This document shows, piece by piece, positions 22,140 through 63,281 of a DNA stretch of 64,000 bases (its first letter is position 1; every line of letters begins with the position of its first letter). The DNA comes from Gammaproteobacteria bacterium (GTDB lineage Bacteria > Pseudomonadota > Gammaproteobacteria > Eutrophobiales > Eutrophobiaceae). A program made the position numbers and the translations under genes. The DNA is taken from assembly GCA_965222155.1 (NCBI GenBank), contig CBDCTH010000012.1:2720001-2784000 (forward strand), read 5' to 3'. Below the pieces are notes generated by a model. It was not told where the DNA came from, made no database searches, and worked only from the letters and a program-made list of their open reading frames with translations.

Positions 22140-22250
22140 CATTCGCCGGAATGACGGAGAGCCCAGAATGACAGGAGTGTGCAAAACGTGGTTTTACACC
22201 ATATACTTTTGCACTTGTCAGAATAAATTAAACCAGGGGCACAGATACCG

Positions 22251-24440: not shown

Positions 24441-24458
24441 GGTTATATCCCCCTCGTA

Positions 24459-24959
24459 TCAATGCTGGCAGATTTCCGCCCACTTTTCGACGGACTCATC
24501 ACCCAGCAAGGTTTGCAGTAAAATCACGCTCAATTCCCCGGCGCGAAACTGGTAGGCCGCGCCGGCCGGCAACAGGACCAGGTGGCCCCGCGTCGTCTTA
24601 ATATGTCCCATAACCTGCCCCTCCGGTTGGTCGGCCAGTTTAACAGACCCTTCCTTCTCTTCGGGTGGAACCAGCCCACCGTCCGCGGGCTGAATAAAAC
24701 GGGTTTCCATGCTGCCCTGCATGAGCAACGCGGTCTCATCGTGGCTGCAGATATACCAAGGACTGTCACCTTCCGCGCGTATCACTTCAACGGTGTTCTC
24801 CAAGTTTTTGGCGATAACAATACGCTCCCAGGGCTGCGCGTTGCCGGCTACCTCGAACATATTGGAAAACAAGTAATCCCGGGCCTCCTCATTGCCGGTA
24901 ATCTCAACGCCTCCCTTGTCGTACTTTTCTATACTGCCGAATACGGTTGTTACGGACAT
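24459..24959 (-). CDS. hqdA: Hydroquinone 1,2-dioxygenase small subunit (HqdA/HapC/PnpC1 type)
   Basis: TVFGS..KGGVEI..ARDYLFSNMFEVA, RAEGDSPW..HDE, LLPAGAAYQF, SVEKWAEIC; RBS GGAGGAG. Confidence 0.88.
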   Translation of the reverse strand: MSVTTVFGSIEKYDKGGVEITGNEEARDYLFSNMFEVAGNAQPWERIVIAKNLENTVEVIRAEGDSPWYICSHDETALLMQGSMETRFIQPADGGLVPPEEKEGSVKLADQPEGQVMGHIKTTRGHLVLLPAGAAYQFRAGELSVILLQTLLGDESVEKWAEICQH

Positions 24960-25351: not shown

Positions 25352-26350
25352 TTAATGACCTGCACCGTCAGCGGACAATAAATGCCGTTCATGGAGCGCC
25401 TCGGGATGAAACTCAGGCCCAATGGGGACAATGCCGGTCGGGTTCACTATGCTGTGACTGCCAAAATAAGACTTTCTGATATGTTCCATGTTAACTGTTT
25501 CCGCAACCCCGGGCTGTTGGTAGAGATCACGGGTATAGGCCCACAAATTCGGATAATCGACCAACCGTTTTCTATCGCATTTGAAATGGCTCACGTACAC
25601 CGGGTCGAACCGTATCAACGTAGTGAACAGGCGCCAGTCCGCTTCGGTGATCCGACTGCCCGTCAGGTAGCGGCGGTTTTGCAAGCTTTTCTCAAGCCAG
25701 TCCAGGGTATCGAACAACGGGTAGACCGCCTCTTCATAAGCCTCCTGGGTGGTGGCGAACCCGGCCCGGTACACACCGTTGTTCAAGGTCTTGAAGACCC
25801 GGCTGTTGATTGCATCGATCTCATCCCGCAGCTGTTCGGGATAATAATCGCCCGGCTTTGCGCCAACATCGTCGAATGCACTGTTGAACATGCGGATGAT
25901 CTCCGCTGATTCATTAGAGACGATGGTATTGTTCCGTTTATCCCACAAAGCCGGTACGGTCACCCGGCCGGTATATTCTGGGTCGGCTGCCGTATAAACC
26001 GCGTAATAATATTTCGCATTATGTACCGGGTCGGGGATGACGCCGTCACTCGGCTCAAACGTCCAGCCGTAGTCGCCCAGGTGCCAATGGACAACGGATA
26101 AGGAAATGATCTTCTCAAGGCCTTTAATACTGCGGTAGATCATGGTGCGGTTGGCCCAGGGGCAGGCATAGGAGACATACAGGTGATAACGGCCCGCCTC
26201 TGCCTTGAACCCGCCTGTACCGGAGGGACCGGGAGAACCGTCTTTGGTTACCCAGTTGCGAAATTGAGATTCTGAACGGATGAACCGTCCCTGATTAGCC
26301 TCGGTGTCATACCATTCATCCTGCCACTTACCCTCTACTAAAAGACCCAT
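25352..26350 (-). CDS. yqjG: Glutathionyl-hydroquinone reductase (Xi-class GST, YqjG/PcpF type)
   Basis: MGLLVEGKW, RYHLYVSYACPWA, VTVPALWD, NESAEII, NNGVYRAGFA. Confidence 0.92.
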   Translation of the reverse strand: MGLLVEGKWQDEWYDTEANQGRFIRSESQFRNWVTKDGSPGPSGTGGFKAEAGRYHLYVSYACPWANRTMIYRSIKGLEKIISLSVVHWHLGDYGWTFEPSDGVIPDPVHNAKYYYAVYTAADPEYTGRVTVPALWDKRNNTIVSNESAEIIRMFNSAFDDVGAKPGDYYPEQLRDEIDAINSRVFKTLNNGVYRAGFATTQEAYEEAVYPLFDTLDWLEKSLQNRRYLTGSRITEADWRLFTTLIRFDPVYVSHFKCDRKRLVDYPNLWAYTRDLYQQPGVAETVNMEHIRKSYFGSHSIVNPTGIVPIGPEFHPEALHERHLLSADGAGH

Positions 26351-26524: not shown

Positions 26525-27861
26525 CACTGCTGTCCCAAGAAAATCGTGTTGATATAATATAACTCATTCATTTCATTAGTAAATAAGCGATTTTTAGCAG
26601 ACATCGATTAAAACCACCCCTCCCCCGCTGGCTAATGCTACCCTCCTGATTTTTATCATTATCAGGAGGAGCCATCATGCCGTCCGGTCACTATATCTTT
26701 TCTCAGGTCATGGCCCATTTGCCCATGAAACCATTCCGCCGCTGTGTCCAACGTTATCACGGCAACCGTTATGTCAAATCCTTTACCTGTCTCGACCAGT
26801 TCCTCTGTATGGCATTCGCCCAACTCACTTACCGCGAGAGCTTGCGTGATATCGAAGTCTGCCTGCGCGCACACCGGGACAAACTCTATCATATGGGGCT
26901 ACGCGGCGGCATGTCACGCAACACCCTCGCCCATGCCAACCCGCAGCGCGACGGGCGCCTCTACGCCGACTTTGCCCACGCCCTGATTCGCCTGGCCCGA
27001 CCGCTGTATGCCGACGAAGACCTGGGGCTGGAACTCGATAATACCGTCTATGCCCTCGACTCCTCCACCATCGACCTGTGCCTGTCCGTGTTCCCCTGGG
27101 CGCACTTCCGTCAAACCAAAGCGGCTATCAAACTGCATACCTTGCTGGACTTGCGCGGCACTATCCCCACCTTTATACATCTCTCCGAGGGCAAACTGCA
27201 CGATGTCAATGTCCTCGACCTGCTGCTGCCCGAGCCCGGCGCCTGCTACGTCATGGACCGCAGCGTAGCTCGATTTCCAACGTCTGTTTGCCCTCAACAT
27301 CGCCGCCGCCTTCTTCGTTATCCGGGCCAAGTCCAATACCCGTTACCGCCGCCGTTATTCCCGACCGGTCGATAAAGCCACCGGCCTGCTGTGTGACCAG
27401 ACCATCGTCCTGACCGGTGTCCGCGCCGCCACCCACTACCCACAACCACTGCGACGCATCAAATACCGCGACCCACAGACCCATAAGACGTTCGATTTCC
27501 TCACCAACCACTTTGCCTTGCCCGCACACACCATCACCGAGTTGTATCGCTATCGCTGGCAGGTCGAGTTGTTCTTCAAATGGATTAAACAACACCTGCG
27601 CATCAAAGCCTTCTTCGGCACCTCGGAGAACGCTGTCAAAACCCAAATCTGGACCGCCGTCAGTGTGTATGTCCTGGTGGCGCTCATAAAAAAACGTCTC
27701 CAACTGACTACGGAACTCTACACAATATTACAGGTTTTAAGCCTGACCCTGTTTGAAAAAATACCATTATATCAATTACTTATACAATCCGATTACAAAA
27801 CAGACCACCGTGATATACTTAACCAGTTGAATTTATTCGATTAATTCTTGGGACACTAGTG
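26525..27861 (+). mobile_element. IS4-family insertion sequence
   Basis: IRs CACTGCTGTCCCAAGAA / CACTAGTGTCCCAAGAA; 9-bp TSD ATAACTTAT at 26516-26524 and 27862-27870. Confidence 0.92.
26677..27844 (+). pseudogene. IS4-family (DUF4372) transposase, frameshifted near 27265
   Basis: N-part ...ESLRDIE..YALDSSTIDLC..YVMDR; C-part YRYRWQVELFFKWIKQHLRIK lies in another frame. Confidence 0.9.
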
Positions 27862-28263: not shown

Positions 28264-29160
28264 ATGGCAACCACGCGACCAATAAGAGACCGCATTCAAG
28301 CCCTGAAACGAGAGTATGATACCTTGCGCAAGGGCAAGGTAGCGCTGCTGTCGATGATCGACGAAGTGGAGATACCTGAAAGTGTGTACAACTCCAACGC
28401 AATAGAGAATTCCACCCTCACCCTGGAAGAAACAGAGAGAATCCTGTTGGAACAGGTGTTGTCCCGGAATGTGTCCGTGAGGGAAGTTTTCGAAGCAAAA
28501 AACCTTGCCCGTGTCATGAAATATAAGCGTGCCGGAGTTAAAGACAGCGAATTGGACATAGAGCTGATACTACGCCTGCACCAGATGCTTATCGGTGGCA
28601 TTGATGACGCTATCGCAGGTCGTTTTCGTCGGCAGGGAGAGTATGTACGGGTGGGCACTCATATCGCGCCGGCGCCCGAACACGTGGAACGCATGATGGA
28701 TAACCTCCTCGTCGACTATTCCAGCGACATCAGTTCCTACTTCCTCGACAAGATTGCCCACTTTCACCTGGATTTTGAGACTATCCATCCGTTTTGCGAC
28801 GGCAATGGTCGCTTGGGGCGAGTCATCATCAATTTTCAATTCCTGCAGGTCGGTCTACCGCGCATTATCATCAGAAATTCAGAGAAAGAGAGGTACTATC
28901 AAGCGTTCAGAGACTATAAGGATGGTAAAAAGACAAAGACGATGGAAGGCATTCTGTCGCTGGCCCTCATGGAGTCACTTCACAAGAGGCTGAGCTATTT
29001 GAAAGGACAGGTCATCATCACGCTGTCGGATTATATCAAGCAGAATGGTCTCTCGGCACCCGCCGTCACCAACGCTGCCCGCCGCCAAACCATTCCGGCT
29101 TTTCGCGAAAAAGGTGTATGGAAGATTGGGCAGGAATTCATGTATAAAACATTCCAGTAA
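28264..29160 (+). CDS. Fic-domain protein with N-terminal inhibitory motif and C-terminal HTH-like tail
   Basis: HPFCDGNGRLGR catalytic motif; SNAIEN inhibitory motif. Confidence 0.92.
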   Translation: MATTRPIRDRIQALKREYDTLRKGKVALLSMIDEVEIPESVYNSNAIENSTLTLEETERILLEQVLSRNVSVREVFEAKNLARVMKYKRAGVKDSELDIELILRLHQMLIGGIDDAIAGRFRRQGEYVRVGTHIAPAPEHVERMMDNLLVDYSSDISSYFLDKIAHFHLDFETIHPFCDGNGRLGRVIINFQFLQVGLPRIIIRNSEKERYYQAFRDYKDGKKTKTMEGILSLALMESLHKRLSYLKGQVIITLSDYIKQNGLSAPAVTNAARRQTIPAFREKGVWKIGQEFMYKTFQ

Positions 29161-29261
29161 TAGCCTTGGAATAATCCGTGATATTTGACGACCCAGTAAT
29201 TTTTTCGCTGACGTGGGGCCGCAACAGGGCGGCAGCGATTTGCGAATGGTTGTGGGGACCA

Positions 29262-29723
29262 AGATAGCTGTTCACCGAATGATATGAAAGTCCTAGGCTT
29301 TGACCCAGTTGAGATGCGTTCCACACCTGCCCATGTAACGCGGCCAGCATGCGTAACAGGCGGTCTGTCGTCTGCGGTTTAGCGGGCAATCCCCAGGTCG
29401 GCAAATCTCTTTGACTCAGAAGGCTAAGATAATCCAATTGCCATTGTGGATATTGCTGGGGTTTCAGGACACCGCCGTCGGGATACCCGCCGCATAACCA
29501 GTGTCGGTTGCACGACGTTCTGGTAGTCAATTCGGTAAAAAGAAACGGGGTCAACTCGATGAGAGATAGCCGCCCGGCAAGAGATTCCGATACCTGGAGC
29601 ATGAGCGATGGAGATACCTTGTGCCAGAGTTGTCCTGCCGGACTGGCGCGGCCCAACGAGAGCCACAGCCGGGTAAATCTTAAGGCGCTCCAGCAGCAGG
29701 GGTTTAATTTTTCGATTGATCAT
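29262..29723 (-). pseudogene. AAA_14/DUF4143-type ATPase, internally deleted, frameshifted and truncated
   Basis: MINRKIKPLL..VALVGPRQSGRTTLA joins SPSLMLQVSESLAGR..GGYP in another frame, then breaks off. Confidence 0.75.
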
Positions 29724-29951
29724 GTCTTGCATTTTAGAATTGTTTTTCTAATTTGCAAATTTACTTACGCCCATAGTCTAAGGTCAGGCATTTGAAAGGA
29801 ATATCGCCCTTTTATCTTCAACACCATCTTCTGTTTTCCTGCTCAGGCTTACTATCCGCAGATTTTACTTTTGGCTGGGGAAAACTTATATTAACGCCTA
29901 TGTCCTCAATCTACTGACGACAATATAAAATTACATGAGTATCAATCAATA

Positions 29952-30608
29952 GTGCGCCAGGCAAATCAGCAAACAGCCCCTCCTACTGTCAAAAAAATGC
30001 GCAAGGACGGGATACTGAAGCGAAAGGAGCTTATTAAATACGCTACGGAAATGTTTCTGGAAATGGGTTATGAAAACGCAAGTATGAATAGCCTTGCGAA
30101 ACGTTCCGGGTCCTCAAAAAGTACCATTTACAAACATTTTTCGAGCAGGCAGGCCCTTTTCATTGCTGTCCTGGATGAGAATTTACGCCATCATCTGGCC
30201 CCTATCGAAAACCTGGATCTTACCACCCTCAGTATTGAAGAAAGCCTGAAACTGATTGGGAGGACAGGCATAAAGGTAATAACATCGAAAAATCACATTA
30301 ATCTGTGTCGAATTATTTACGCAGAAGCTGAACGTATCCCTTACGTAGGTAAAATATATTATGAGCATGGGCCCAAACGTGGCATCGGGGGTGTTGCGAA
30401 ATATCTCTCTACAATGGTGGAAAGGGGCAAGATTAGATGCGCCGATACATCTTTAGCAGCAGAATACTTCTGGGGGATGATACTGCACAAGCCTATGTTG
30501 GAAATGTATTGTGGTATAAAAGGTCCTTTGTCAACTCAGGAGCAAAAGATATATGTAAATAACGTTGTCGACACGTTCATTTCTTCTTTCATTGAAGAAA
30601 TCAAATAA
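29952..30608 (+). CDS. TetR/AcrR-family transcriptional regulator
   Basis: ATEMFLEMGYENASMNSLAKRSGSSKSTIYKHFSSRQALF HTH. Confidence 0.92.
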   Translation: MRQANQQTAPPTVKKMRKDGILKRKELIKYATEMFLEMGYENASMNSLAKRSGSSKSTIYKHFSSRQALFIAVLDENLRHHLAPIENLDLTTLSIEESLKLIGRTGIKVITSKNHINLCRIIYAEAERIPYVGKIYYEHGPKRGIGGVAKYLSTMVERGKIRCADTSLAAEYFWGMILHKPMLEMYCGIKGPLSTQEQKIYVNNVVDTFISSFIEEIK

Positions 30609-30679
30609 CCGGCTTTTATACTTTTGATAAATTCAGAGGTTCCTTAAGTAACATCATCAGTGAACAAGGTCGGTTCATG

Positions 30680-32284
30680 CTACTTCAAAGCATTAAACCA
30701 GGTATTGAGGTAATCAAAAAATTGTTCCGCTTCATCCAAATGGGAACGAAGGGCAATATAACCGTCGGGGCGCAGCAACAATAACTGACCACTGTCGGTT
30801 TTGCCGTAATGTTCTGCGAATTCCCCTTTGGCATCGGTGACCAGTTCTGCGTTACGCAACCCCTCCAGGCTTCGGTTCGACATGATCATGCTGTGGATTA
30901 TATGAGCATATTTTTCGGACACGCGCCGGTGCAATGTGAGCGCCTGATCATCCGTTGCCCCGGCTTTATCAACAATAATCAGACTTAACCGCCCCGTCCT
31001 GACCAGATCAAATAACCGGCGGTTAGCCGAAAGCGCCACGTTTTTCACAGGATCGCCACAAGCCGGACCGGGTAACGACTTCAGACCTTCGGGACCTTCA
31101 ATGACGTCCCGATAGGTGTAGCTCAAACCGGAAATACGGTTGACCGTCTCCGAATGCCAGCCCTCCCTTTGAGTCAGTTGCAGCCTGTCGTCCATGCCAT
31201 GTCCATGAGCCATGATAATATCGTGCATGGCATGAGTGCCCGCGATCACCTGTGCACCAATTGGTTTGCGTTCTGGCGTGTACGTATCCAGCAACTTTCT
31301 ACGTGCATATCCCTGTTGTACCATCGCCAGCTTCCAGCCAAGGTTAAATGCATCCTGCATCCCGACATTCATTCCCTGACCGCCGGAAGGTGAATGCACA
31401 TGTGCAGCATCACCGGCAAGAAAACAATTCCCCGTACTGTAATTATCTGTAATGCGCCTCCAAAGTTCCCATTTCGTAGCCCAATCCGGTTCAGCAAGTT
31501 CCGTGCCGCTGACATGACCGTCGATGAGGCGCTGGAAAGCCTGGCGTGGAATCAAATTCGGGTCAGCTGCCTCACCCGTATCACTGATCAGGACCCGATG
31601 GCGGCCATTCGGCAATTTCGTCAACAATAAAAAACTGTCCTTTGACATATAGTAATGAATCCAGTCATCAGTGCCCTCAAATCCGTGATAGTGAACATCC
31701 ATCATCTGCATCACCATGCCTGCGTAATTCTCGCCCGAAAAGTCCAGTCCTGCGGTTTTCCGGACAAAACTGTGGATACCATCGCAGCCCACAATCCAGC
31801 GGGGCGCAATCACCTGCTCCTCACCTGTGCTGTTTTGAAGACTTGCGCCGAAACCGTCCGCAGTCTCAATGAATGCCCTCAGCTCTACACCCCATTCCGG
31901 ATGAAACGCATAGGTTGCATCAAGATGTTCTCGCAGCCTTTGCTCGGTATCGTTCTGGTTGTAGACCAGTATGTATGGATAGTCACTATCCAGCCCGGTG
32001 AAATCCAGCGCCGGTTGAGCATCCTTGCCTTTGAAGTTGAATAAAAAACCGCGGCTTTTCAAACCGTCTCGTAGAAAACGATGCGCAAGTCCCATATGCT
32101 CGAACATCTCCATGGTTTTCGCGTGCAGTGTAAACGAACGGGACGTTTCAGTTGGCCGGGATCTTTTATCAATCATTCGACACGGCACACGCCGGCGCAA
32201 TAATTCGCTTGCCAGCACCATGCCGGTAGGTCCTGAGCCGACGATTAGTACAGGTTCATGTTGATCTGGATTCATAATAGCCAC
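30680..32284 (-). CDS. pcpB: FAD-dependent phenol para-hydroxylase closely resembling pentachlorophenol 4-monooxygenase PcpB
   Basis: GSGPTG, VGCDGIHS, LAGDAAHVHSPSGGQGMNVGMQDAFNLGWK, plus segments recalled from PcpB (YNQNDTE, ATYAFHPEWG, QMMDV, DDWIHY, WATKW, GTHAMHDIIMAHG). Confidence 0.8.
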   Translation of the reverse strand: MAIMNPDQHEPVLIVGSGPTGMVLASELLRRRVPCRMIDKRSRPTETSRSFTLHAKTMEMFEHMGLAHRFLRDGLKSRGFLFNFKGKDAQPALDFTGLDSDYPYILVYNQNDTEQRLREHLDATYAFHPEWGVELRAFIETADGFGASLQNSTGEEQVIAPRWIVGCDGIHSFVRKTAGLDFSGENYAGMVMQMMDVHYHGFEGTDDWIHYYMSKDSFLLLTKLPNGRHRVLISDTGEAADPNLIPRQAFQRLIDGHVSGTELAEPDWATKWELWRRITDNYSTGNCFLAGDAAHVHSPSGGQGMNVGMQDAFNLGWKLAMVQQGYARRKLLDTYTPERKPIGAQVIAGTHAMHDIIMAHGHGMDDRLQLTQREGWHSETVNRISGLSYTYRDVIEGPEGLKSLPGPACGDPVKNVALSANRRLFDLVRTGRLSLIIVDKAGATDDQALTLHRRVSEKYAHIIHSMIMSNRSLEGLRNAELVTDAKGEFAEHYGKTDSGQLLLLRPDGYIALRSHLDEAEQFFDYLNTWFNALK

Positions 32285-32349
32285 CTCATCATCAATATGT
32301 CACTGACAGCCTCGTAAAAACTTCTTGATTATTATCCACGAAATCCCTA

Positions 32350-32373
32350 AACTGTACAAGGTAGTTCGGTTTA
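32350..32373. promoter_or_regulatory. Putative TetR operator in the divergent pcpB/pcpA promoter
   Basis: Imperfect palindrome AAACTGTAC-AAGGTA-GTTCGGTTT. Confidence 0.45.
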
Positions 32374-32426
32374 AAGAGGCAGCTAAGGAAAATTCCAAAC
32401 TGACATATACCAAGAGGAGAAACAGC

Positions 32427-33395
32427 ATGTCCGAAAAGTTACCCGGTACAAGTTTGACCGGTCATCATCACATAACGATCGGCGTCGGCAACGTGCAGGA
32501 AGACTTCGATTTTCATACCAAGGTCCTGGGCCTGAAATGCGTCAAGCGCACCTTGTTCTACGACGGGGCAACCCCGGTTTACCACCTGTACTATGGCAGT
32601 GATATCGGTGAGGAAAGTACGCTGCTCACTACTTTCCCGGTGGCTCACATCGGCGTAAAGGCAAAAGAAGGCAGCGGGCAGGTCAGTTATGTGAGTCTGT
32701 CCGTACCTGAATCTTCGCTGCCTTACTGGAACAAACGCCTCAAGGAACATGGTTTCGAGGTGACGGAAACAGAGCGTTTTGGCGAAAAACACCTTGACTT
32801 TCGTTCCCCGCACAATATCCGCTTATCCATCGTCGGGGTAGACGACGATACGCGAGCGCCGTATTCCGCCGGACCTGTGCCTGCTGAACACATGATCCGC
32901 GGCACCCATGCAGCCGGTGTATCCACTCGCGACATGGAGTTCATGGAAGAGTTTCTGGAGGTGGCATGGGGCTCCCGAAAGGAGGCGGACGACAGCAATA
33001 TGGTTCGTTTCACCATGGGTGAAGGCGGCACCGGCACCTATACGGATTTTGAAATCGAACCGGACCGTAAACCAGGCACCTGGACAGTGGGAGAAGGCAC
33101 CATCCATCACATGGCCTATAACGTGCCAACCCGGAAAGAGCAGGACGCCATCAAGTTTTTTACCGAGGGGCTCGGTTATACGGATTTTTCCGACGTGAAA
33201 GATCGCGGCTATTTCGATTCCATTTATATCCGTACTCCCTCCGGCGCCCTGTTTGAAGCCTGTTGTTCACACAAACCTGCTTTCACTTGCGATGAACCTT
33301 TTGAAACACTCGGTACAAAGCTGATGATGTCGCCGCAAATTGAAGCCAATAAAGATGAGGTACTGAAAGTTATCGGTGAAATCAAGGATGATTGA
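32427..33395 (+). CDS. pcpA: PcpA/LinE-type (halo)hydroquinone 1,2-dioxygenase (VOC fold)
   Basis: HHITI, VKRTLFYDG..PVYHLY, TTFP, EPDRKPGTWTVGEGTIHH, TEGLGYTDFSD.KDRGYF, RTPSGALFEA; RBS GAGGAG. Confidence 0.82.
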   Translation: MSEKLPGTSLTGHHHITIGVGNVQEDFDFHTKVLGLKCVKRTLFYDGATPVYHLYYGSDIGEESTLLTTFPVAHIGVKAKEGSGQVSYVSLSVPESSLPYWNKRLKEHGFEVTETERFGEKHLDFRSPHNIRLSIVGVDDDTRAPYSAGPVPAEHMIRGTHAAGVSTRDMEFMEEFLEVAWGSRKEADDSNMVRFTMGEGGTGTYTDFEIEPDRKPGTWTVGEGTIHHMAYNVPTRKEQDAIKFFTEGLGYTDFSDVKDRGYFDSIYIRTPSGALFEACCSHKPAFTCDEPFETLGTKLMMSPQIEANKDEVLKVIGEIKDD

Positions 33396-33645
33396 GAAAA
33401 TGAAATCATAATCGCCGGAAATGCGCTGTTGTGGCCTGTTTAAGTGAAACCCTTAGCGTATTGTCAGCAACTTAAACAAGCTGTCTGATACTGGCCAGCG
33501 CCGGCACGGGCTTTTCCCATATGTATTGACCCGGACACCGATTTGCCACCAAGCTTTGCAAAGCGGTAACATAGCCGTTCTTTTAACGAACCTGACCCTT
33601 GGAATGTACGTGTGGATCTTTTTTGTGGCCGCCTGCTGAACGAAG

Positions 33646-34707
33646 ATGAATTTTGAATATAAGGCTCTTCCCTGGAATATTATTTTTGGCGCCGGCGCCC
33701 TGAACCGGTTGCCGGAAGAATTGGACAAACTCGGTTATTCCCGCGCCCTGGTGCTGGCGACGCCGAACCAGTCAGATATCGGGCAGGAGATCGTCGGGTT
33801 GCTGGGTGACAAGGCGGCAGGCCTGTTCGACCGGGCCTTGATGCACGTCCCGGTTGAAACACTCGAACAGGCAATGGCGGAGGTAAAACGGCTCGACGCC
33901 GATTGTTCCGTCTCCGTGGGCGGCGGATCGACCACCGGCCTGAGCAAGGCACTGGCTTTCCACCTGGACCTGCCCAATATTGTGGTACCGACCAGTTACG
34001 CCGGTTCGGAGATGACCAATATCTGGGCGGTGACGCAGGATAACCGCAAAATTACCAGGCGGGATGAGGTCGTTGTACCGACATTGACCATCTATGACCC
34101 GGAGTTGACCCTGACGCTGCCGCCGGCATTTGCCGGCGCCAGTGGTATGAACGCCATGGCCCAGGCTGTTGTCAATGCCGCCGCAGAAGATGCCAACCCA
34201 ATTAGTTCGGTCATGGCCCTGGAAGGTATTCGCGCCTTGTCACAGAGTCTGCCCGTCATAATCTCCGAACCCGATAACATGCACGCGCGTAGCGGGGCCA
34301 TGTACGGCGCCTGTATGGCCGCCGCCGCGCTGGGAACCGGCACGACAGGCCTGCATCATCGTTTGTGCCACACTTTTGGCGGCACGTTCAACACGCCCCA
34401 TGCCGAGACCCATACCATCCTCCTGCCGCACAGCGTCGCCTACAACGCCAGCGCCAGGCCGGACACTACGCGCAGGGTCGCCGCGGCCATGGGAGTCAGT
34501 GATGCCGCAACCGGCCTGTTTGAGCTGGCCGGAAAGCTTGGCGCTCCCACTGCATTGAAAGACATCGGGGTAAAGGAGACGGACCTGGATGAAGCCGCTG
34601 CAGTAGCCGTTGAAAAGCCGATAAAAAACCCCGAACCGGTTACCAGGGAGAGGATACGCGCCTTGCTGGAAAACGCCTACCACGGTCATCCCCCCACGCC
34701 CGTGTAA
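33646..34707 (+). CDS. Maleylacetate reductase (PcpE/LinF/TfdF family)
   Basis: [46 protein letters not shown]. Confidence 0.92.
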
Positions 34708-34712
34708 CCGAT

Positions 34713-36080
34713 ATGAGAACCGTTCCGCAGATCACCGTGCAAGAGGCCGCCGCCAGGATTCGTTCCGGCGACGTAGTTATCGTGGGCGGCTTCGGTATGA
34801 CGGGTAACCCGACCAAAGTAATGCACGCCATAGCCGAGACTGACGTGACCGATCTCACGTATATCGGCAATAACGTGGGAGAGCCGGGGCTGGCTGGCGG
34901 ACGTTGCCTGCGCAAGGGGCAATTCAAAAAAGTCATAGGCTCATTTTTCACCAGCAACCCGGAAGCCGTAGAGGCGGTCCAGTCCGGGAAAGTCGAAGTC
35001 GAACTCCTGCCTCAGGGCACCCTGGCTGAGGCAATCCGCGCAGGCGGGGCCGGTATCGGCGGCTTTTTCACGCCCACCTCCGTCGGAACGCCGCTGGCGG
35101 AAGGGCGCGAGACAAAGCTAATCGACGGAACAGAAATGGTATTTATTCCCGCGCTACATGCCGATGTCGCGATCATCAGAGCCTGGCGGGCGGACACGGT
35201 CGGCAACCTGCAGTACCGAATGACCGAAAACAACTTTAACCAGGCAGCTGCCACTGCCGCTGACCTGATCATTGCAGAGGTGGAGGAAATCGTCCCGGCC
35301 GACGCGCTCGATCCTGATTTTATCCATACCCCGGGCTGTTTTGTCGATTACCTGGTCCAGGCCACGCTTGACCCGGAGCACCTGGGCACTTCAGCATCCG
35401 TGGCGGCGAGTCTGAAAAAGGTGGATGATACCCGCATGATGATGGCCAGGATAGCCCTGGCGGAATTGAAACGGGGCGATATCGTCAACCTGGGGGTCGG
35501 CATACCCACCCTGGTGGCGGACCTGATCAAGCCGGAGGACGGCATCATCCTGCACTCTGAAAACGGGATGCTGGGAGTGGGCCCCGAACCGGCCTCCGGC
35601 GGCGCCATGGAGTACCCGGTCAACGCCGGCAAGGTGCCGGTCACTGCGCTGTCGGGCGCCAGCTATTTCGATAGTGCCACCTCTTTCGCCATGATCCGGG
35701 GGGGGCATGTGGATGTGGCTATCATGGGCGGGCTACAGGTGGATGAGCAGGGCAACCTGGCCAACTGGGCGGTACCGGGCAAGCCCCTGCTCGGCGTCGG
35801 CGGCGCCATGGACCTGGCGTCCGGCGCCAATAAGCTCATCGTCACCATGACCCACAGCGACAGGAACGGCAACTCCAAGGTGGTTCCCCGTTGCAACCTG
35901 CCCCTGACGGCGCGCAAGGCCGTCGATTTACTGATTACGGACCTCGCGGTATTTGACTTCGACACATCCGGCATGCGCCTGGTGAAGCTGCTTCCCGGCG
36001 TTACGGAAGATGAGGCAAGGGCAAAGACAGCGGCAGATTATACGGTGGCCCTGGCCAGCCACCGCAATGAGGGATCATGA
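34713..36080 (+). CDS. Fused alpha+beta 3-oxoacid (3-oxoadipate) CoA-transferase
   Basis: [22 protein letters not shown] (alpha); [19 protein letters not shown] (beta). Confidence 0.9.
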
Positions 36081-36628
36081 TCTTCGACCCTGCCGTCAAC
36101 CTCATCGCCGCGCTGATACTCAGCTACGTGTTCGTCCTGGCAGGACTGCACAAATGCAGGGCGCCGGCGGAATTCGCGGCCACCCTGGATAATTACAGGA
36201 TCCTGCCGGAAAGATTATACCGGCAAGGCGTCTACCTGATCCCCGTAGCGGAAATCATGACGGGGGTTGCCCTGCTGATACCCGCCACAGCGCGGCTTGC
36301 GGCATTGGCGGTGGGTACGTTGTTGTGTGTCTATATTGCTGCAATCGGCATCAACCTGCTGCGTGGACGGCGCAATATCGATTGCGGTTGCGGCGGGCCT
36401 GCACAGAAACAGACCCTCAGCGAATGGATGCTGGCGCGCAACGGCCTGCTGCTGCTGCTTGCCTGTATCGCCGGCTCCCAGGTGCTGCCCCGGACGCTGC
36501 TCTGGTTCGACTGGCTGGTAGTCGTCCCGGCAACCGTGATGGGTTGCCTGTTCTACAACATCATTAATCAATTGCTGGTAAACAGGGATTTGTTGAGTGC
36601 CCTGACCCGCGAGGAATACCATGCTTGA
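36077..36628 (+). CDS. mauE: MauE amine dehydrogenase maturation membrane protein
   Basis: [17 protein letters not shown] motif; overlaps the CoA-transferase stop (ATGA). Confidence 0.88.
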
Positions 36629-37235
36629 AGCCTTAATCATCTCCAACCTGCTGCTCTGGATCATCGTGGTGGTACTGGGAGTGATGGTGTTTGCCCTGGT
36701 CAGGCAGATCGGCGTTCTCTATGAACGGGTCGCGCCGGCAGGCGCCCTGATGGTGAATCAAACCCTGCGTCCCGGAGACGCGGCCCCCGAGATGGATTTG
36801 CTGACTATCGAGAATAAAAAAATCCGCATCGGCGGTGTCCGGGAACCTGCGCGCAGCCTGCTGCTGTTTTTTCTTGCGCCCGATTGTCCGGTATGCAAGA
36901 CCTTGCTGCCGGTGCTGTTTTCGGCACAGAAAGAAGAAAGCGGATGGCTGGACATCGTGCTGGCCAGTGATGGTCCCGTCGATCAACACAGGAAGTTCAT
37001 CGAACAGCAGAAACTGTCACCCTTTGATTACGTGCTGTCGGAAATACTCGGCCGCAGTTATGGGGTGGGCAAACTGCCCTACTCGGTCCTGATCGACGAG
37101 CAGGGAAAAGTCGTTACCATGGGCATCATTAATACCAGGGAACATTTGGAGAGCCTGTTTGAAGCAAAGGAACGGGGCGTTGCCTCCATCCAGGAATACG
37201 TAAAAAAGTATCACTCCGAAGAAGCCGCGGGATGA
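36621..37235 (+). CDS. mauD: MauD thioredoxin-like amine dehydrogenase accessory protein
   Basis: LVRQIGVLYERVAPAGAL, PDCPVCKTLLP, NTREHLESLFEA. Confidence 0.92.
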   Translation: MLEALIISNLLLWIIVVVLGVMVFALVRQIGVLYERVAPAGALMVNQTLRPGDAAPEMDLLTIENKKIRIGGVREPARSLLLFFLAPDCPVCKTLLPVLFSAQKEESGWLDIVLASDGPVDQHRKFIEQQKLSPFDYVLSEILGRSYGVGKLPYSVLIDEQGKVVTMGIINTREHLESLFEAKERGVASIQEYVKKYHSEEAAG

Positions 37236-37388: not shown

Positions 37389-37490
37389 ATAATTCAGGAC
37401 ACCCATATAATTCAGGACACCCATAAAAGAGGACAGGTTGAAAACCTGTCCCCGTTCTTTCCACAATTTTATGGGTGTCCTGGAATTACA
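37389..37490. mobile_element. MITE family B with stuttered left end
   Basis: TAATTCAGGACACCCATAAAA...TTTTATGGGTGTCCTGGAATTA; near-identical copy at 49717-49817. Confidence 0.8.
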
Positions 37491-38191
37491 ACAGGCTGGT
37501 GGGGCTGCCAGGTCATGACTGGTTGTATGGCGAGGCGGGCGCTGACCGCCTGTTCGGCGGCGCCGGGGCGGACGTGCTGGCGGGCGAAGCTGGCGTGGAC
37601 ACGGCGTCGTCGTCGTATGCCGACTCGAACGCCGCGGTGCAGGTGGACCTGGGTCGCGGCACGGCGACCGGCGGTCATGCCGAAGGCGACACGCTCACCG
37701 GCATTGATAATCTCATTGGGTCGAGGCATAGCGACAGCTTGACGGGCGATGCCCACGCCAACCGGCTGTGGGACGCCGGCAATGACCGCCTGTTCGGCAG
37801 CGGGGGGAACGACGTGCTGGTGGGTGGCGCCGGGGCCGACACGCTGGACGGTGAAGGCGGCGCTGACACCTTTCGTTACAGCGCCGCCGCCGACTCGACC
37901 CCCGCGGCGGCGGGGCGCGACCAGTTCCTGCACTTCTCGGGCGCCGGCGGCGGCGACGGCGACAAGCTGGACCTGTCCGGCCTGGGCAAGGCCCTGACCT
38001 TCATCGGGTCGGCCGACTTCTCCAATACCCCCGGCCAGGTCCGAGTGACCTAACGCGGCGTGACCACGAGCGACAATGCCAGCGATGACTATACCGACGT
38101 ATTGGCCGACCTGAACGGCGACGGCGCGGCCGACTTCATGCTGAGCCTGAGCGGGCTGCACAGCCTGAGTGATGCGGACTTCATCGTCTGA
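37491..38191 (+). pseudogene. 5'-truncated RTX gene remnant (paralog of the 3' end of 38406..44849) with premature TAA at 38051
   Basis: Near identical to about 44440-44849; CAA changed to TAA in GQVRVT*RG. Confidence 0.88.
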
Positions 38192-38405
38192 GTTGAACCA
38201 GCGAGACCGGGCCGTGTCCGGGCTCAGAAACATGTGAGACTTTTCATTGCTAAAAAATCGGGTAGTCTGTGGGAGGACTACCCGATGCAGAGCAAAAGCC
38301 GGCGGATTAAATCCTACCGCAGTGGGGTGGACAATTGCTTGCTCATGGTAATTGTCCTCTGTTATATTACCCTATGCGCCCACTGAACCCATAGAGAGGT
38401 AATCC

Positions 38406-41400
38406 ATGAAGATGGCTTCTGACCCCGGTCCGGCAGGCCCGGAACACGCACAATCCTGTTGTTGCAGCAGCTGTTCGGCAGTGAACCTGGAACAGCGAGT
38501 ATACCAATCCCAAGACTCTCAACGCTCTCAAGGTTCTCCAGTCTCTCAAAACTCTGCGGAGCAGCTACCCCAATGGGGCGTACTCGCCTCGGACGCCTAT
38601 GACGAGATCGCCGACCACCTCAATGCTTCGGACTGGTACTTTCCGATTGAGTCCGGCGGTGAGATCACGGTGAACGTCACCAGTCTGACCGCTGGGGGTC
38701 AGCAACTCGCCCGCTGGGCCCTGGCGGCCTGGGAGTCGGTGGCGAACCTGACCTTTCGGGAAGTGGCAGAGGACGCCAACATCACCTTTGACGATGAGTC
38801 CCCGGGTGGCCGGGTGACGCACGTTGATGCGGATGGCGGCGGGTTCCTCTCGGCCGAGGTAAATGTGGGGAAGGCATGGCTCAACTGGGGTGGTGACGGG
38901 CTCGGCAGCTGGGCGTTCTTTGCCTACATCCACGAGATCGGCCATGCGCTGGGTTTGTGGCATCCCGGGCCCTATAATGGCGCGCGGGTACGTTACGGGA
39001 TCGACACCCTGTTCGCGGCTGACTCCTTCCAGACGTCGGCCATGTCGTATATCAGACAAGCTCATGGCCTCCCACCTGAGCATGGCAACAAACCCCGAAA
39101 CACTGCGAGCGATGCGAGCTTCGCCCTGCCGGTCACGCCGATGATGGCGGACATCCTGGCGATTCAGGAGAAGTATGGCGCCCCCGAGACCAACCCGGGG
39201 GACACGGTGTACGGCTACCAGTCCAACGTCGGCGGCTACCTGGAGGAGGTCTTCGCGGCACTCACCGAGCAGGACGGTGAGCTTGATGGGCCGGTGACAC
39301 TGACACTGTTCGACAGCGGCGGGGAGGACCGGCTGGACCTGCGCACGGACAAGGCCGACCAGCGGGTGGACCTGCGTCCGGAAGGCGTCTCGGACGTGTA
39401 CGGGCTGACGGGCAACTGGCTGATAGCGCGGGGCACGGTGATTGAGAACCTGGTGGCCGGTCAGGGCGATGACCAGGTGATTGCGAATGCGGCGGCGAAC
39501 GAGTTGGACGGTGGCCCGGGCAGCGACACGGTATCCTATGTAGGCTCGGATGCCGGGGTGCGGGTGGACCTGGAGGCGGGGACAGGTGCCGGCGGTCATG
39601 CTCAGGGCGACGCGCTCAGCAACTTTGAGCACGTGGTGGGCTCGGCACACGCTGATGAGTTGCGCGGCGATGAGCTGGCTAACCGGCTGGTGGGCGGCGC
39701 CGGCGACGATACGTTGTACGGGGAAGCGGGCGACGACACGCTGGATGGAGAGGAGGGCGATGATGTCCTCGAGGGCGGCGCGGGGGCGGACGTCTTCAAT
39801 GGCGGCGCCGGGGGAGACACGGCGTCGTATACGGGTTCGCCTGTCCGGGTACGGGTGAACCTGGACACCGGGCAGGCCGCCGGCGGTGATGCCGCCGGCG
39901 ACACGTTCCATGACATTGAACATCTGGCCGGCTCGGCGTACGCCGACAAGTTGACGGGGGATGGCGGCGCCAACCGGCTGTCTGGCGGCGCGGGGGATGA
40001 CCGGCTCTACGGCAGCGCTGGCAACGATGTGCTTAACGGCGGGGCCGGCGCCGACACGCTGGGCGGTGGGGCCGGTGATGACACCGTATCCTATCTTGAC
40101 TCTGATGCGAGAGTACGGGTGAACTTGCATACCGAGGCGGTGGCGGACGGTCATGCGACGGGCGACAAGCTCAGGAGCATCGAGCACGTTATCGGCTCGG
40201 CGTATGCCGACATGCTGATGGGGGATAAGGGCGCCAACCGGCTGGCGGGCGCGGCCGGCGATGACCAGATCTACGGTGACGGTGGCAACGACGTGCTGGT
40301 GGGCGGGCCCGGCGCGGATACCCTCGGCGGCGGCACCGGGGTCGACACTGCCTCCTATGCGGGTTCCCCGGTGGGGGTGCAGATTGACCTGGACGCGGGC
40401 ACGTTCCAGGGGGGTGATGCAGTGGGTGACCGGCTCAACTCAATTGAGCGGCTTGAAGGCTCGCGCCATGTTGACCACTTGTTCGGCAGTGCGGCGGCGG
40501 ATTGGTTGGCCGGCGCGGCCGGGGACGACCGGTTGCTGGGGCGGTTGGGCGATGACCGGCTGGTCGGTGGCGACGGCGATGACCAGCTGGCGGGCGGCCC
40601 GGGTGCGGACCAACTGGCTGGCGATGTGGGCGATGACACGCTGGAAGGGGGCTTGGGCGCCGACACACTGGATGGTGGCGCGGGATATGATACGGCGACC
40701 TATGCGGGCTCCCCGGTCGGGGTACGGATTGACCTGGCGGCACAGACATTCCAGGGGGGCGATGCCGCCGGGGATGCGCTCACTGATATTGAGCGGATTG
40801 TCGGCTCGGGGCAGGGCGATGTGCTGCAGGGGAGTGACGAGACAGACCACCTGGTCGGGGCCGGTGGGGATGATGAGTTATACGGCCGGGCGGGGGACGA
40901 CACGCTGGCGGGCGGCGCCGGCGCGGACACATTGGATGGTGGCGCCGGGGGCGACACCGCCTCGTATGCGGACTCACCCGCCGGGGTGGAGGTGAATCTC
41001 GACACCGGCGCGGGCACTGGCGGTGAGGCGAGCGGCGACACGCTGGTCAACATTGAACACGTGCTCGGCTCGGCGCACGTTGACGTGCTACGGGGCGATG
41101 CCGGCGCCAATTGGTTTGCGGGTGCGGGCGGTAACGACCTGCTGTACGGCGGTGCTGGGAATGACGTGCTGGCCGGCGGTGTCGGGGACGATGAGCTGGA
41201 TGGGGAAGCGGGTGATGACACGCTCAACGGGGACCCGGGTGCGGACACGCTGGATGGGGCGAGCGGCGTTGACACCCTGTCCTATGCGGACTCTGAGGCG
41301 GCGGTGCGAGTGGATTTGGATAGCCGGGCGGTGTCGGGGGGTGATGCCGAGGGGGACACAATCCACGGCTTCGAGCAGGTGGTCGGCTCGGCCTACGATG

Positions 41401-44400
41401 ACGAGTTACGCGGCGGTCCCGGCGTCAACCGGCTGTGGGGTGGCGCAGGTAACGACCGGTTGTACGGCAGCGGGGGCAACGACCGGCTCGACGGGGGTGG
41501 GGGCAATGATCTATTGAAAGGAAATGATGGCGCCGACACGCTTGATGGGGGTGAAGGCAATGACCGGCTGTGGGGTGGCGGAAAGAACGACCGGCTGTAC
41601 GGGGGTGGGGACGATGATCGATTGAAGGGAGAGAAGGGCGATGACACGCTTGATGGGGGTGAGGGCGATGACCAGCTCGAAGGCAGCGGTGGGGCGGATA
41701 CGCTCGACGGTGGCGGTGGCGAGAACACCGTACTCTACTGGGGGTCGGACGCCGGGGTGGAGGTGGACCTCGACACCGGGGTGGTCTCGGGCGGCCATGC
41801 CGAGGGGGACACGATACTCAACTTCCAGCATGCGGATGGGTCCAAGTACCAGGACAAGTTATGGGGCGACGCCCGCGCCAACGCGCTGCGCGGTTGGGCC
41901 GGGGACGACACCCTTGAAGGCAAGGCCGGGGCGGACACCCTGGACGGGGGGAGCGGGGCGGACACCTTCCAATACAGTGCCGCGGCGGACTCGACCGTGG
42001 CCAACCCGGACCGCATCCTGGACTTCTCAGGCAACGGCGGGGACGGCGACCGCCTGGACTTATCCGGCCTGGGCAATGACCTGACGTTTATCGGGACAAC
42101 GGCCTTCTCCAACAGCGCGGGCGAGGTGCGCTATGTGCAGCGCGGCGCGGCCACAGGCAGCAACATCGATGATTACACCGACGTACTGGTTGATGTGGAC
42201 GGGAACGGCATAGCGAACTTCAAGGTCACCCTGGCCGGGCTGCACAGCCTGACGCTGGCGGACCTGGTGGGTGTGCAGGCGGCAGATATTGTCGGCACGG
42301 CCGGTGCTGATACGTTGGTGGGCGATGCCCGGGCCAACGTCCTGCGCGGCCTGGCCGGTGCAGACACGCTGGACGGCGGCGCGGAGTCAGACACCCTGGC
42401 CGGAGGTACCGGGGCGGACACCTTCCAATACAGTGCCGCGGCGGACTCGACCGTCGCCAACCCGGACCGCATCCTGGACTTCTCAGGCAGTGACGGGGAC
42501 GGTGACAAGCTGGACTTATCCGGCCTGGGCAACAACCTGATCTTTATCGGCACGACGGCCTTCTCCAACAGCGCGGGCGAGGTGCGCTCTGTGCAGCGCG
42601 GCGCGGCCACAAGCAGCGACACCAGTGATGATTACACCGACGTACTGGTTGATGTGGACGGGGACGGCGCGGCGAACGCCAAGCTCACCCTGGTCGGGCT
42701 GCACAGCCTGACGCTGACGGACCTGGTGGGTGTGCAGGCAGCAGATATTGTCGGCACGGCAGGCGCTGATACGTTGGTGGGCGATGCCCGGGACAACATC
42801 CTACGCGGCCTGGCCGGGGACGACGTGCTAGACGGCCAGGCCGGGGCCGACACCCTGGACGGGGGTACTGGCCAGGACACCGCGTCCTACACCGACTCGG
42901 ATGCGGCGGTGCAGGTGGACTTGGACGCCGGGACGGCCACGGGCGGTCATGCCCAGGGCGACACCCTGACGGGTATTGAGAACCTGCGCGGCTCCGCGCA
43001 CGCGGATGTGCTGCGCGGGGACAACAGCGCCAACCGCCTGTGGGGGGGCGCCGGGGATGACAAGCTGGTGGGGCTGGGTGGGGATGACTGGCTGTATGGC
43101 GAGGCGGGCGCTGACCGCGTGTTCGGCAGTGGCGGGGACGACGTCCTGGACGGCGGCGCCGGCGCGGACGTACTGGACGGTGAAGGCGGTACCGATACGC
43201 TGTCCTATGCCGGCTCTGCGTCAGGGGTGGCGGTCAACCTGGCCAGCGGTACGGTATCGGGGGGGGATGCCCAGGGTGACACGATTGCCAGCGTTGAGAA
43301 CGTGCTCGGCTCGGCGCAGGACGATGTGCTGGTCGGGAACGGCAGCGCCAACCGGCTGGACGGCGGTGCCGGGGCGGATACCTTACGCGGGGCCGGCGGC
43401 GCCGACACCCTGACAGGCGGGGCCGGGGATGACACCTTCCAATACAGCAACGCGACAGACTCGACTGGGGCCAACCCGGACCGCATCCTGGACTTCTCAG
43501 GCAACGGCGGGGACGGTGACAAGCTGGACTTATCCGGCCTGGGCAACGACCTGACGTTTATCGGCACGACGGCCTTCTCCAACAGTGCGGGCGAGGTGCG
43601 CTATGTGCAGCGCGGCGCGGACACGGGCAGTAACAGCAGTGATGATTACACCGACGTACTGGTAGACCTGGACGGGGACGGCGCGGCGAACGCCAAGCTC
43701 ACCCTGGTCGGGCTGCACAGCCTGACGCTGACGGACCTGTCGGGCGTACAGGCGGCAGATATTGTCGGCACGCCAGGGGATGATACGTTGGTGGGCGATG
43801 ACCAGGCCAACGTCCTGCGCGGGCTGGCCGGCAACGACGTCCTGGCCGGCCAGGCCGGGGCCGACACCCTGGACGGGGGCAGCGGGGCGGACACGGCGGC
43901 CTACACCGACTCGGACGCCGCGGTGCAGGTGGACTTACGCGCCGGGACGGCCAGTGGCGGTCATGCCCGGGGCGACACCCTGACGAGTATTGAGAATCTA
44001 CGCGGCTCGGCGCACGCGGATGAGTTACGCGGGGACGACGGCGCCAACCGGCTGTGGGGCGGGGACGGCGCTGACACGCTGGTGGGATTGGCGGGCGCTG
44101 ACCGGCTGGTGGGGGGCGCCGGCGATGACCGGTTGTACGGCAGCGCGGGGAACGACGTGCTGGCGGGCGGCGCCGGGGCGGATGTGCTGGACGGTGAAGG
44201 GGGTGACGACACCCTGTCCTATGCCGACTCCGAGGCGGGGGTGCGAGTGGACCTGACTACCGGGGCGGTGGCGGGCGGCGCTGCCGAGGGGGACACGATT
44301 CGCAGCTGCCTGCACGTGCTTGGTTCGGCTTATGATGACGAGTTGCGCGGCAGTCGCGGCCCTAACGAGCTGTGGGGCGGAGACGGCGCTGACAAACTGG

Positions 44401-44849
44401 TGGGATTGGCGGGCGCTGACCGGCTGGCGGGGGGCGCCGGCAATGACCGCCTGTTCGGCAGCGGGGGGAACGACGTGCTGGTGGGCGGCGCCGGGGCCGA
44501 CACGCTGGACGGCGAAGGCGGCGCTGACACCTTTCATTACAGCGCCGCCGCCGACTCGACCCCCGCGGCGGCGGGGCGCGACCAGATCCTGCACTTCTCG
44601 GGCGCCGGCGGCGACGGTGACAAACTGGACCTGTCCGGCCTGGGCAAGGCCCTGACCTTCATCGGGTCGGCCGACTTCTCCAATACCCCCGGCCAGGTCC
44701 GAGTGACCCAACGCGGCGTGACCACGAGCGACAATGCGAGCGATGACTACACCGACGTATTGGCCGACCTGAACGGCGACGGCGCGGCCGACTTCATGCT
44801 GAGCCTGAGCGGGCTGCACAGCCTGAGTGACAACGACTTCATAATGTGA
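38406..44849 (+). CDS. Giant serralysin-family (M10B) zinc metalloprotease with expanded RTX repeats, 2147 aa
   Basis: [11 protein letters not shown], Met-turn [26 protein letters not shown]; RTX nonapeptides; four serralysin C-terminal domains. Confidence 0.92.
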
Positions 44850-56763: not shown

Positions 56764-56767
56764 GACC

Positions 56768-58319: not shown

Positions 58320-58322
58320 ACG

Positions 58323-59621: not shown

Positions 59622-59629
59622 CGAGTCCT

Positions 59630-63280: not shown

Positions 63281-63281
63281 T

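Follow-up and report, generated by a model that had tools for sequence, protein, structure and literature searches.

Bacterial pathways that open the ring of substituted hydroquinones form the background to the locus considered here, a gene cluster at 29952-37235 of a 64,000-nucleotide stretch of DNA (the window; contig CBDCTH010000012.1 of assembly GCA_965222155.1) from an uncultured gammaproteobacterium. In Sphingobium chlorophenolicum L-1, pentachlorophenol (PCP) is degraded with the help of PcpB, PcpA and PcpE, members of the three enzyme families that also occur in the window, where an identical order of reactions is proposed. The PCP pathway also has PcpC and PcpD, its genes are dispersed and its regulator, PcpR, is of the LysR type, whereas the genes of the window are clustered beside a TetR gene. 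Neither a PcpD-type reductase nor a PcpC-type glutathione S-transferase (GST) was found among the open reading frames (ORFs) scanned in the window, as a first-pass annotation of this DNA had already noted, and the only GST present is of the Xi-class YqjG/PcpF type. PCP degradation in S. chlorophenolicum needs pcpE (PMC3318906), and a transposon sequencing (Tn-seq) study reports that pcaIJ and pcaF matter as well (PMC6247019); the need for pcaIJ fits the linkage of a CoA-transferase to the cluster in the window.

In the lower lindane pathway of Sphingobium indicum UT26, a single-chain hydroquinone dioxygenase (LinE) is followed by a maleylacetate reductase (LinF), as in the window, but the LinE locus includes LinD (a GST dechlorinase), the LysR-type regulator LinR and hydrolases, and has no PcpB-type monooxygenase. 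In Pigmentiphaga sp. H8, a single gene cluster reportedly encodes OdcA, OdcB and OdcC and follows the logic proposed for the window: a flavin monooxygenase is reported to turn 3,5-dibromo-4-hydroxybenzoate into 2,6-dibromohydroquinone by oxidative decarboxylation, a dioxygenase to cleave this to 2-bromomaleylacetate, and a maleylacetate reductase then to yield 3-oxoadipate. The two-subunit PnpCD/HapCD dioxygenases also cleave hydroquinone, but their fold is unrelated to that of the single-chain enzyme of the window.

A similar set of genes is carried by plasmid pRK1-5 of Cupriavidus basilensis RK1, a strain for whose isolation 2,6-dichlorophenol was the only source of carbon (PMC8142561). This compound falls within one of the substrate classes that the first-pass annotation proposed. 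In this plasmid locus (L082), a PcpB-family monooxygenase lies directly beside a PcpA/LinE-family dioxygenase, with a maleylacetate reductase and without PcpC or PcpD, as in the window; the full order, between IS1071 and Tn3 transposases, is LysR, monooxygenase, dioxygenase, alpha/beta hydrolase, reductase and LysR. It differs from the window in its LysR regulators, its extra hydrolase, the lack of a CoA-transferase and its position on a transposon-flanked IncP plasmid. The genome note credits pRK1-5, by annotation only, with two chlorophenol monooxygenases and one chlorohydroquinone 1,2-dioxygenase (PMC8142561), and we infer that one of these monooxygenases and the dioxygenase are the adjacent pair because their accession numbers are consecutive. 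The RK1 monooxygenase is 39.5% identical to the window enzyme and 36% identical to PcpB, and the RK1 dioxygenase and reductase are 43.6% and 47% identical to their counterparts in the window. The compactness that the first-pass annotation had implied to be new is therefore not so, since a monooxygenase-dioxygenase-reductase cluster already exists on pRK1-5 and, reportedly, as OdcABC in Pigmentiphaga sp. H8. The locus in the window is a further uncharacterised example of a known monooxygenase/hydroquinone dioxygenase/maleylacetate reductase pathway type. No report of a natural or marine counterpart of the PcpB/PcpA pair was found in the literature searched.

Gene content and predicted pathway

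The ORF list and the Pfam, NCBIfam and PDB searches recover, at their positions and with their identities, all five genes that the first-pass annotation had named. The predicted monooxygenase (30680-32284, - strand, 534 aa) belongs to the PcpB family of single-component flavin adenine dinucleotide (FAD) monooxygenases, matching FAD_binding_3 (PF01494; 1.3e-87) and Rng_hyd_C (PF21274; 5.2e-7); its real start is probably the ATG at 32275 (531 aa), which has a GAGG upstream, rather than the GTG at 32284. Across a divergent promoter region of 151 bp (32276-32426), between the starts of the two oxygenase genes, lies the gene for a type I, single-chain Fe(II) hydroquinone 1,2-dioxygenase of the PcpA/LinE family (32427-33395, + strand, 322 aa). 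Its ORF is listed from a TTG at 32325, and the ATG at 32427, behind the ribosome site AAGAGGAG, is the likely start that gives the 322-aa product. The alignment with PcpA (PDB 4huz) has an E-value of 7e-80 (272 bits), places residues 43-344 of the ORF on residues 5-307 and covers nearly the full length of a two-module VOC fold. According to PMC3204407, the Fe(II) ligands of PcpA are His11, His227 and Glu276, plus Tyr266; in the 4huz alignment all four (His11, His227, Tyr266 and Glu276) are identical in the window enzyme, as H15, H228, Y267 and E277.

Beyond a 250-bp gap (33396-33645), the + strand encodes a maleylacetate reductase (33646-34707, 353 aa) with an Fe-ADH fold, whose nearest PDB entries are solved maleylacetate reductases (3jzd, 1.6e-103; 3w5s, 9.9e-93; 3hl0, 4.5e-92). 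This is followed on the same strand by a fused A+B 3-oxoacid (3-oxoadipate) CoA-transferase (34713-36080, 455 aa) in which both the PcaI/ScoA and the PcaJ/ScoB models pass their curated cut-offs within one chain (TIGR02429, 204.3 against 128.5 bits; TIGR02428, 276.8 against 243.55 bits).

The order of reactions is inferred from the established chemistry of the four enzyme families. The monooxygenase would use NAD(P)H and O2 to hydroxylate a substituted phenol at the position para to its OH, giving a substituted hydroquinone, or alternatively would form the same type of product by oxidative decarboxylation of a substituted 4-hydroxybenzoate. The dioxygenase would then open the ring between C1-OH and the adjacent substituted carbon, the reductase would convert the resulting (substituted) maleylacetate to 3-oxoadipate, and the fused PcaIJ-type transferase would form 3-oxoadipyl-CoA, with the thiolase encoded elsewhere; no thiolase gene is present in the window. 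The scheme of the first-pass annotation, from phenol through hydroquinone, ring cleavage, maleylacetate and 3-oxoadipate to the CoA ester, thus holds up in its logic. A general route from a substituted phenol to central metabolites can be assigned with good confidence, and a hydroquinone-branch aromatic catabolic cluster is, with somewhat less assurance, the best explanation of the locus as a whole.

The operon does not end at 36080, as had been proposed, but continues to 37235 through two further genes on the + strand. The first encodes a MauE/DoxX-family membrane protein (36077-36628, 183 aa; Pfam MauE 1.6e-29, DoxX 1.9e-4) with a CGCGG motif, and its start overlaps the stop codon of the CoA-transferase gene (ATGA). 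The second, which overlaps the first at its end and belongs to the same operon as the transferase, encodes a MauD-like, membrane-anchored thioredoxin-fold protein (36621-37235, 204 aa) with a CPVC motif, scoring 188.4 bits against TIGR02661 (MauD), just under the cut-off of 188.6. Homologs of MauA and MauB, the amine dehydrogenase subunits, are absent from the window.

These two genes bear on an alternative in which the locus does not support growth but is a regulon for quinone/hydroquinone detoxification, comparable to that of MhqR in Bacillus subtilis: the repressor would sense electrophilic quinones, and damage by quinones would be removed or repaired by the dioxygenase together with the DoxX/MauE-like and thioredoxin-like proteins. 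Such pairings are known from mhqNOP and yqjF-yqjG. The translational coupling of the DoxX/MauE-family and CPVC thioredoxin-fold proteins to the operon is consistent with this idea, as are the second-best structural relative of the dioxygenase, MhqO of B. subtilis (PDB 3oaj, 5.5e-47), and a glutathionyl-hydroquinone reductase of the YqjG/PcpF type encoded 4 kb upstream. However, the monooxygenase, maleylacetate reductase and 3-oxoadipate CoA-transferase form a complete route into central metabolism, which goes beyond the needs of detoxification, and none of the 80 loci listed in a monooxygenase profile search of genome contigs has MauE/MauD beside the monooxygenase. Detoxification is therefore a very improbable account of the cluster, and the catabolic reading is retained below.

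Relatives of the two oxygenases

The monooxygenase is 48% identical to PcpB of S. chlorophenolicum L-1 at 95% coverage in the search (47.6% over 510 aa by blastp), and relatives at 40-72% identity are now numerous in databases; the best 120 of its 7922 significant matches span 89% to 41% identity. A FastTree tree of 140 rows and a quick IQ-TREE tree of 74 rows agree. The window enzyme lies inside the PcpB family, a supported clade of 63 rows in the IQ-TREE tree (SH-aLRT 98) that stands apart from outgroups of 30-35% identity and corresponds to 129 rows with support of 100 in the FastTree tree, while the backbone of the family is unresolved. PcpB itself sits on a long stem in a clade of 7 rows (support 100) that includes a protein from a Panacagrimonas metagenome-assembled genome (MAG) and whose other members share 64-72% identity with PcpB. 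The window enzyme belongs to a separate clade of 19 rows (support 99) together with proteins from a Pseudomonadales MAG (60% identical) and a Ca. Rariloculaceae MAG (55%), and the RK1 plasmid enzyme falls in a third clade, alongside actinobacterial proteins. An approximately unbiased (AU) test did not reject a sister relation of the window and PcpB clades (p 0.41), a relation that is not present in the free tree. The top structural match, PDB 5kow ('Pentachlorophenol 4-monooxygenase'), was set aside as a sign of kinship with PcpB, given that this chain goes under the name of rifampin monooxygenase as well and its match covers only residues 12-357.

The dioxygenase, 44% identical to LinE, has a large environmental family. 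The best 120 of its 674 matches are all unnamed 'VOC/glyoxalase' proteins of 60-93% identity from MAGs of Gammaproteobacteria, Woeseiaceae and Verrucomicrobia, one of them with a 'tara' source tag; a whole-library search with clustering at 50% gave 319 representatives at E-values of at most 1e-30, and an ESM Atlas look-up returned only 'VOC family protein'. In a tree of 69 rows, the window enzyme lies in a clade of 13 rows (support 96) that is sister (support 92) to a clade of four rows (support 100) comprising LinE, the RK1 enzyme, the dioxygenase of another locus (L007) and P0366. The last is the representative nearest to PcpA (373 bits to 4huz) and stood in for PcpA's own sequence; the H10 LinEb-like gene on pISP0, which is split into two ORFs, was left out. 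The window enzyme is thus outside the four-row clade that holds the characterised (chloro)hydroquinone dioxygenases.

The kinship with PcpB and PcpA that the first-pass annotation had asked phylogeny to confirm is therefore borne out at the level of families and not at that of the nearest clades: the monooxygenase is within the 63-row PcpB family and outside PcpB's own 7 rows, and the dioxygenase is in a sister clade. The position outside the PcpB clade that the annotation had named as refuting its reading thus applies to the monooxygenase in the narrow sense and not at family level. Its suggestion that the cluster could be an ancestor of the PCP pathway is not supported, since PcpB has closer environmental relatives (64-72%) in a clade that excludes the window enzyme. 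By their positions in these trees, the window enzymes relate to PcpB and PcpA at sister level and not as their ancestors, and the nearest natural relatives of PcpB lie elsewhere, in the clade with the Panacagrimonas MAG protein.

Linked genes of this kind recur in other genomes. Among the 80 loci listed, two have monooxygenases at least 55% identical to that of the window, and only two loci carry a PcpA-like gene in their flanks. One of these, in the Pseudomonadales MAG (L001), combines within 9 kb counterparts of the fused transferase, the dioxygenase, the monooxygenase and the reductase (69%, 72%, 60% and 46% identical, respectively) with genes for a TonB-dependent receptor and a LysR regulator, the transferase being adjacent to and divergent from the dioxygenase; the other (L007) has a dioxygenase, a TetR gene (29% identical) and a monooxygenase. 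In three actinomycete loci (L003-L005) the reductase adjoins the monooxygenase, and in the locus of the Ca. Rariloculaceae MAG (L002) genes for a TonB receptor and for a tannase/feruloyl esterase occur without a dioxygenase gene. Plasmid pACHL02 of Pseudarthrobacter chlorophenolicus A6 (L081) encodes a dioxygenase, a hydrolase, a reductase, a thiolase and a two-subunit transferase; its monooxygenase, considered as a possible PcpB-family member, shares no more than 27% identity with the window enzyme and is of a different family. The clustering of genes for consecutive steps is not due to chance, because it recurs in L001, L007 and L082 and, with an unrelated monooxygenase, in L081. The locus is of value mainly because the dioxygenase clade is large, is widespread in the environment and is paired repeatedly with monooxygenases of the PcpB family.

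In cultured degraders of chlorophenols or lindane, the gene immediately after that of the PcpA/LinE-type dioxygenase encodes an alpha/beta hydrolase or an esterase (L082, 8984-9745; L083, 4995-6508; L081, 9013-9696). The window and L001 have no such gene in this position.

Candidate substrates

Cleavage beside a halide-bearing carbon, as in LinE and PcpA chemistry, gives an acyl halide and hence maleylacetate directly. Cleavage of unsubstituted hydroquinone, by comparison, gives 4-hydroxymuconic semialdehyde, for which a dehydrogenase is then needed (PMC3727088). An aldehyde dehydrogenase (ALDH) was found in none of six sequences (the window, L001, L002, L007, L081 and L082) searched by tblastn with one ALDH probe only. 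As cleavage next to a halide requires no semialdehyde dehydrogenase, this result points to a halogenated substrate, and so does the presence of the module on a catabolic plasmid in RK1, which degrades 2,6-dichlorophenol. The 2,6-dihalo- or 2,4,6-trihalo-substituted substrate put forward in the first-pass annotation is plausible. The leading guess, still a tentative one that falls somewhat short of even confidence, is a phenol whose hydroquinone would bear a chlorine or bromine leaving group next to an OH, for example a 2,6-dihalophenol. The cluster has neither a quinone reductase, as would be expected for a 4-halo substrate, nor a transporter for an acid substrate. The first absence speaks for a substrate in which the position para to the OH bears H or COOH, and the second mildly favours a neutral phenol over an acid; both also count among the points against the guess.

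Several other observations also weigh against a halogenated substrate. One probe stands behind the dehydrogenase result, and the PnpCD-type enzyme encoded farther upstream must make the semialdehyde, yet it too is without a neighbouring dehydrogenase; a dehydrogenase encoded elsewhere may serve both PnpCD and the cluster. In these trees, there is no characterised member in the 19-row clade of the monooxygenase or in the 13-row clade of the dioxygenase. F77, Y208, R227 and Y388 of the monooxygenase align with F85, Y216, R235 and Y397 of PcpB, the active-site residues reportedly examined by mutagenesis by Nakamura et al. (2004). All 58 PcpB-family rows keep Y216, R235 and Y397, and 41 of them keep F85; because they are conserved family-wide these residues are uninformative on halogen specificity. 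In addition, the neighbours of the monooxygenase genes in L001 and L002 encode TonB-dependent receptors as well as two esterases, a carboxylesterase and a tannase/feruloyl esterase, and hint at natural phenolic esters.

The same pathway could act on a non-halogenated natural phenolic, for example a methoxy-, methyl- or hydroxy-substituted phenol or 4-hydroxybenzoate such as occurs in lignin or algal phenolics, with methoxyhydroquinone or hydroxyquinol cleaved to maleylacetate or its ester. Hydroxyquinol cleaved at C1-C2 would likewise need no dehydrogenase, although hydroxyquinol is normally cleaved by intradiol enzymes. The TonB receptors and esterases of the two MAG loci suit this alternative, as does the dioxygenase clade, which is very large and spread across uncultured Gammaproteobacteria, Woeseiaceae and Verrucomicrobia. 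Also in its favour, Copley's group counts PcpA and PcpE to a standard lower pathway for natural compounds and regards the original substrate of PcpB as unknown (PMC3318906). Against it, the cluster in the window has no esterase or alpha/beta hydrolase that could free a methyl ester, and LinE and PcpA, the nearest characterised dioxygenases, act on chlorohydroquinones. A natural, non-halogenated phenolic is judged unlikely, and a halogenated phenol is kept as the leading guess.

A wider proposal would make the window-type pair the core of a widespread mineralisation of natural halophenols, such as bromophenols, in uncultured marine and sediment Gammaproteobacteria. This route would be the natural source reservoir for the lower pathways of xenobiotic chlorophenol and lindane degradation, and MauE/DoxX and MauD would act as a membrane thiol:quinone oxidoreductase that replaces the PcpD-type reductase. 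We regard this as improbable. If the enzymes did turn over natural halophenols, the cluster would mark a common uncultured sink for biogenic organohalogens and would supply enzymology with well-behaved natural relatives of PcpB and PcpA, which themselves perform poorly.

Composition, regulation and surroundings

The GC content varies along the cluster, from 42% in tetR to 51-52% in the monooxygenase and dioxygenase genes, 59-61% in the reductase, transferase and MauE genes and 55% in the MauD gene, against 48-53% in housekeeping genes. Across the 250-bp gap, GC and GC at third codon positions (GC3) jump from 52% and 58% to 60% and 70%. The gap contains a 12-nt inverted repeat (arms 33434-33445 and 33470-33481) and a promoter-like site (33543-33572), and it possibly holds an internal promoter or attenuator. 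Given the rise in GC across a gap with these features, the cluster may be a mosaic of two units of different origin, a point that counts against reading it as a single entity. In plasmid examples, MauE and MauD are encoded between the genes for the large and small amine dehydrogenase subunits (mauBEDA), and on pNL2 of N. aromaticivorans mauBEDA adjoins pcaIJF. Considering the pNL2 arrangement, the MauE/MauD pair of the window may be a remnant; otherwise it may have a role in quinone handling.

An alternative built on these features splits the locus into two units: the genes for TetR, monooxygenase and dioxygenase would form a native pair of operons, and the reductase, transferase, MauE and MauD genes would have been acquired separately as an operon and would serve any source of maleylacetate, including PnpCD. 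Besides the jump in composition and the signals in the gap, it is favoured by the reductase of L001, a different copy (46%) that lies beyond a LysR gene, and by pNL2, where the link between transferase and MauED could be left over from another cluster. Conversely, the transferase also adjoins the dioxygenase in L001, where it is 69% identical, and the genes would still make up one pathway by function, as the alternative concerns history and transcription only. Separate origin of the two halves is possible, if on balance doubtful, and a single catabolic cluster remains the preferred description.

The TetR-family regulator (29952-30608, + strand, 218 aa) matches TetR_N (1.2e-12) and TetR_C_7 (4.2e-27), and no NCBIfam model reaches its cut-off for this protein. 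Its gene and the monooxygenase gene are convergent, tail to tail, and not divergent. The TetR control named in the first-pass annotation finds no support in this arrangement or in the relatives, among which LysR regulators accompany L001, the RK1 cluster and S. chlorophenolicum, and the 29% identical TetR accompanies L007.

A scripted scan located an imperfect palindrome, TGTCCTCA-N6-TGACGACA (29901-29922; 8-nt arms, 1 mismatch), about 30 bp upstream of the TetR start and just downstream of a promoter-like site at 29864-29892, which makes it a candidate autoregulatory operator. It is related to a perfect 11-bp palindrome, TGTCACTGACA, at 32298-32308 in the 151-bp divergent region, where a second ACTGACA occurs at 32399-32405. 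The default repeat finder gave no longer inverted repeat in the divergent region, the short palindrome being found by eye and script. The TGTCACTGACA palindrome coincides in part with promoter-like -35 hexamers of both strands (GTGACA and CTGACA at 32303), and TetR may repress the divergent monooxygenase and dioxygenase promoters from this candidate operator. A shared operator with L007 was considered and discarded, as the intergenic region between TetR and monooxygenase there carries another palindrome, GTACCG-N2-CGGTAC.

Upstream of the cluster, the window encodes a second, unrelated hydroquinone ring-cleavage system, 5-8 kb away. This is a complete two-subunit hydroquinone 1,2-dioxygenase of the PnpCD/HapCD type (23424-24959, - strand; large subunit 5m21_B, 7e-129; small subunit 5m21_A, 2e-43), and the ALDH probe found no semialdehyde dehydrogenase in the window. 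The Xi-class GST mentioned above, a glutathionyl-hydroquinone reductase of the YqjG/PcpF type and not PcpC, lies at 25352-26350 (- strand; 3r3e, 1.3e-133; 4fqu, 2.7e-129).

Between these upstream hydroquinone genes and the cluster lie a decayed IS4 element, a Fic gene and a DUF4143 fragment. The mobile-element debris of the region comprises an intact DDE_Tnp_1 transposase (20904-22184, - strand), N- and C-terminal pieces of an IS4 transposase (26677-27375 and 27518-27844, + strand), the Fic-domain protein (28264-29160, + strand) and the weak DUF4143 fragment (29138-29656, - strand). An Rfam search of the window gave no matches. For GatB, the best-matching named relatives are labelled 'MAG: Gammaproteobacteria bacterium' and reach at most 83% identity, in keeping with an uncultured gammaproteobacterial host. 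Farther upstream, a 303-aa coiled-coil protein (18257-19168, - strand) has below-cut-off matches to apolipoprotein and CCDC90-like repeats, and its gene adjoins that of a GlcD-like FAD oxidase (19399-20769).

Four proteins of the RTX-repeat/serralysin-C-terminal type are encoded on the + strand at 2-5040, 37475-38053 and 38406-44849, one of them with 2147 aa and 26 repeat matches; the GC content of their genes is 68-70%, compared with about 50% for the rest. A 254-aa ORF at 37469-38233 (- strand) is probably a shadow of the small RTX gene. The segment 45590-49067 encodes a metallo-beta-lactamase-fold protein with its best match, short of the curated cut-off, to SoxH-related quinoprotein-relay hydrolases; it also encodes a weakly aromatic-acid-type major facilitator superfamily (MFS) transporter and a short-chain dehydrogenase/reductase (SDR). 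Type IV secretion/conjugation genes occupy 52103-63947 (+ strand), with TrbL/VirB6, VirB8, CagX/VirB9 and TrbI/VirB10 domains and several ORFs without a Pfam match, and this region may be an integrative conjugative element.

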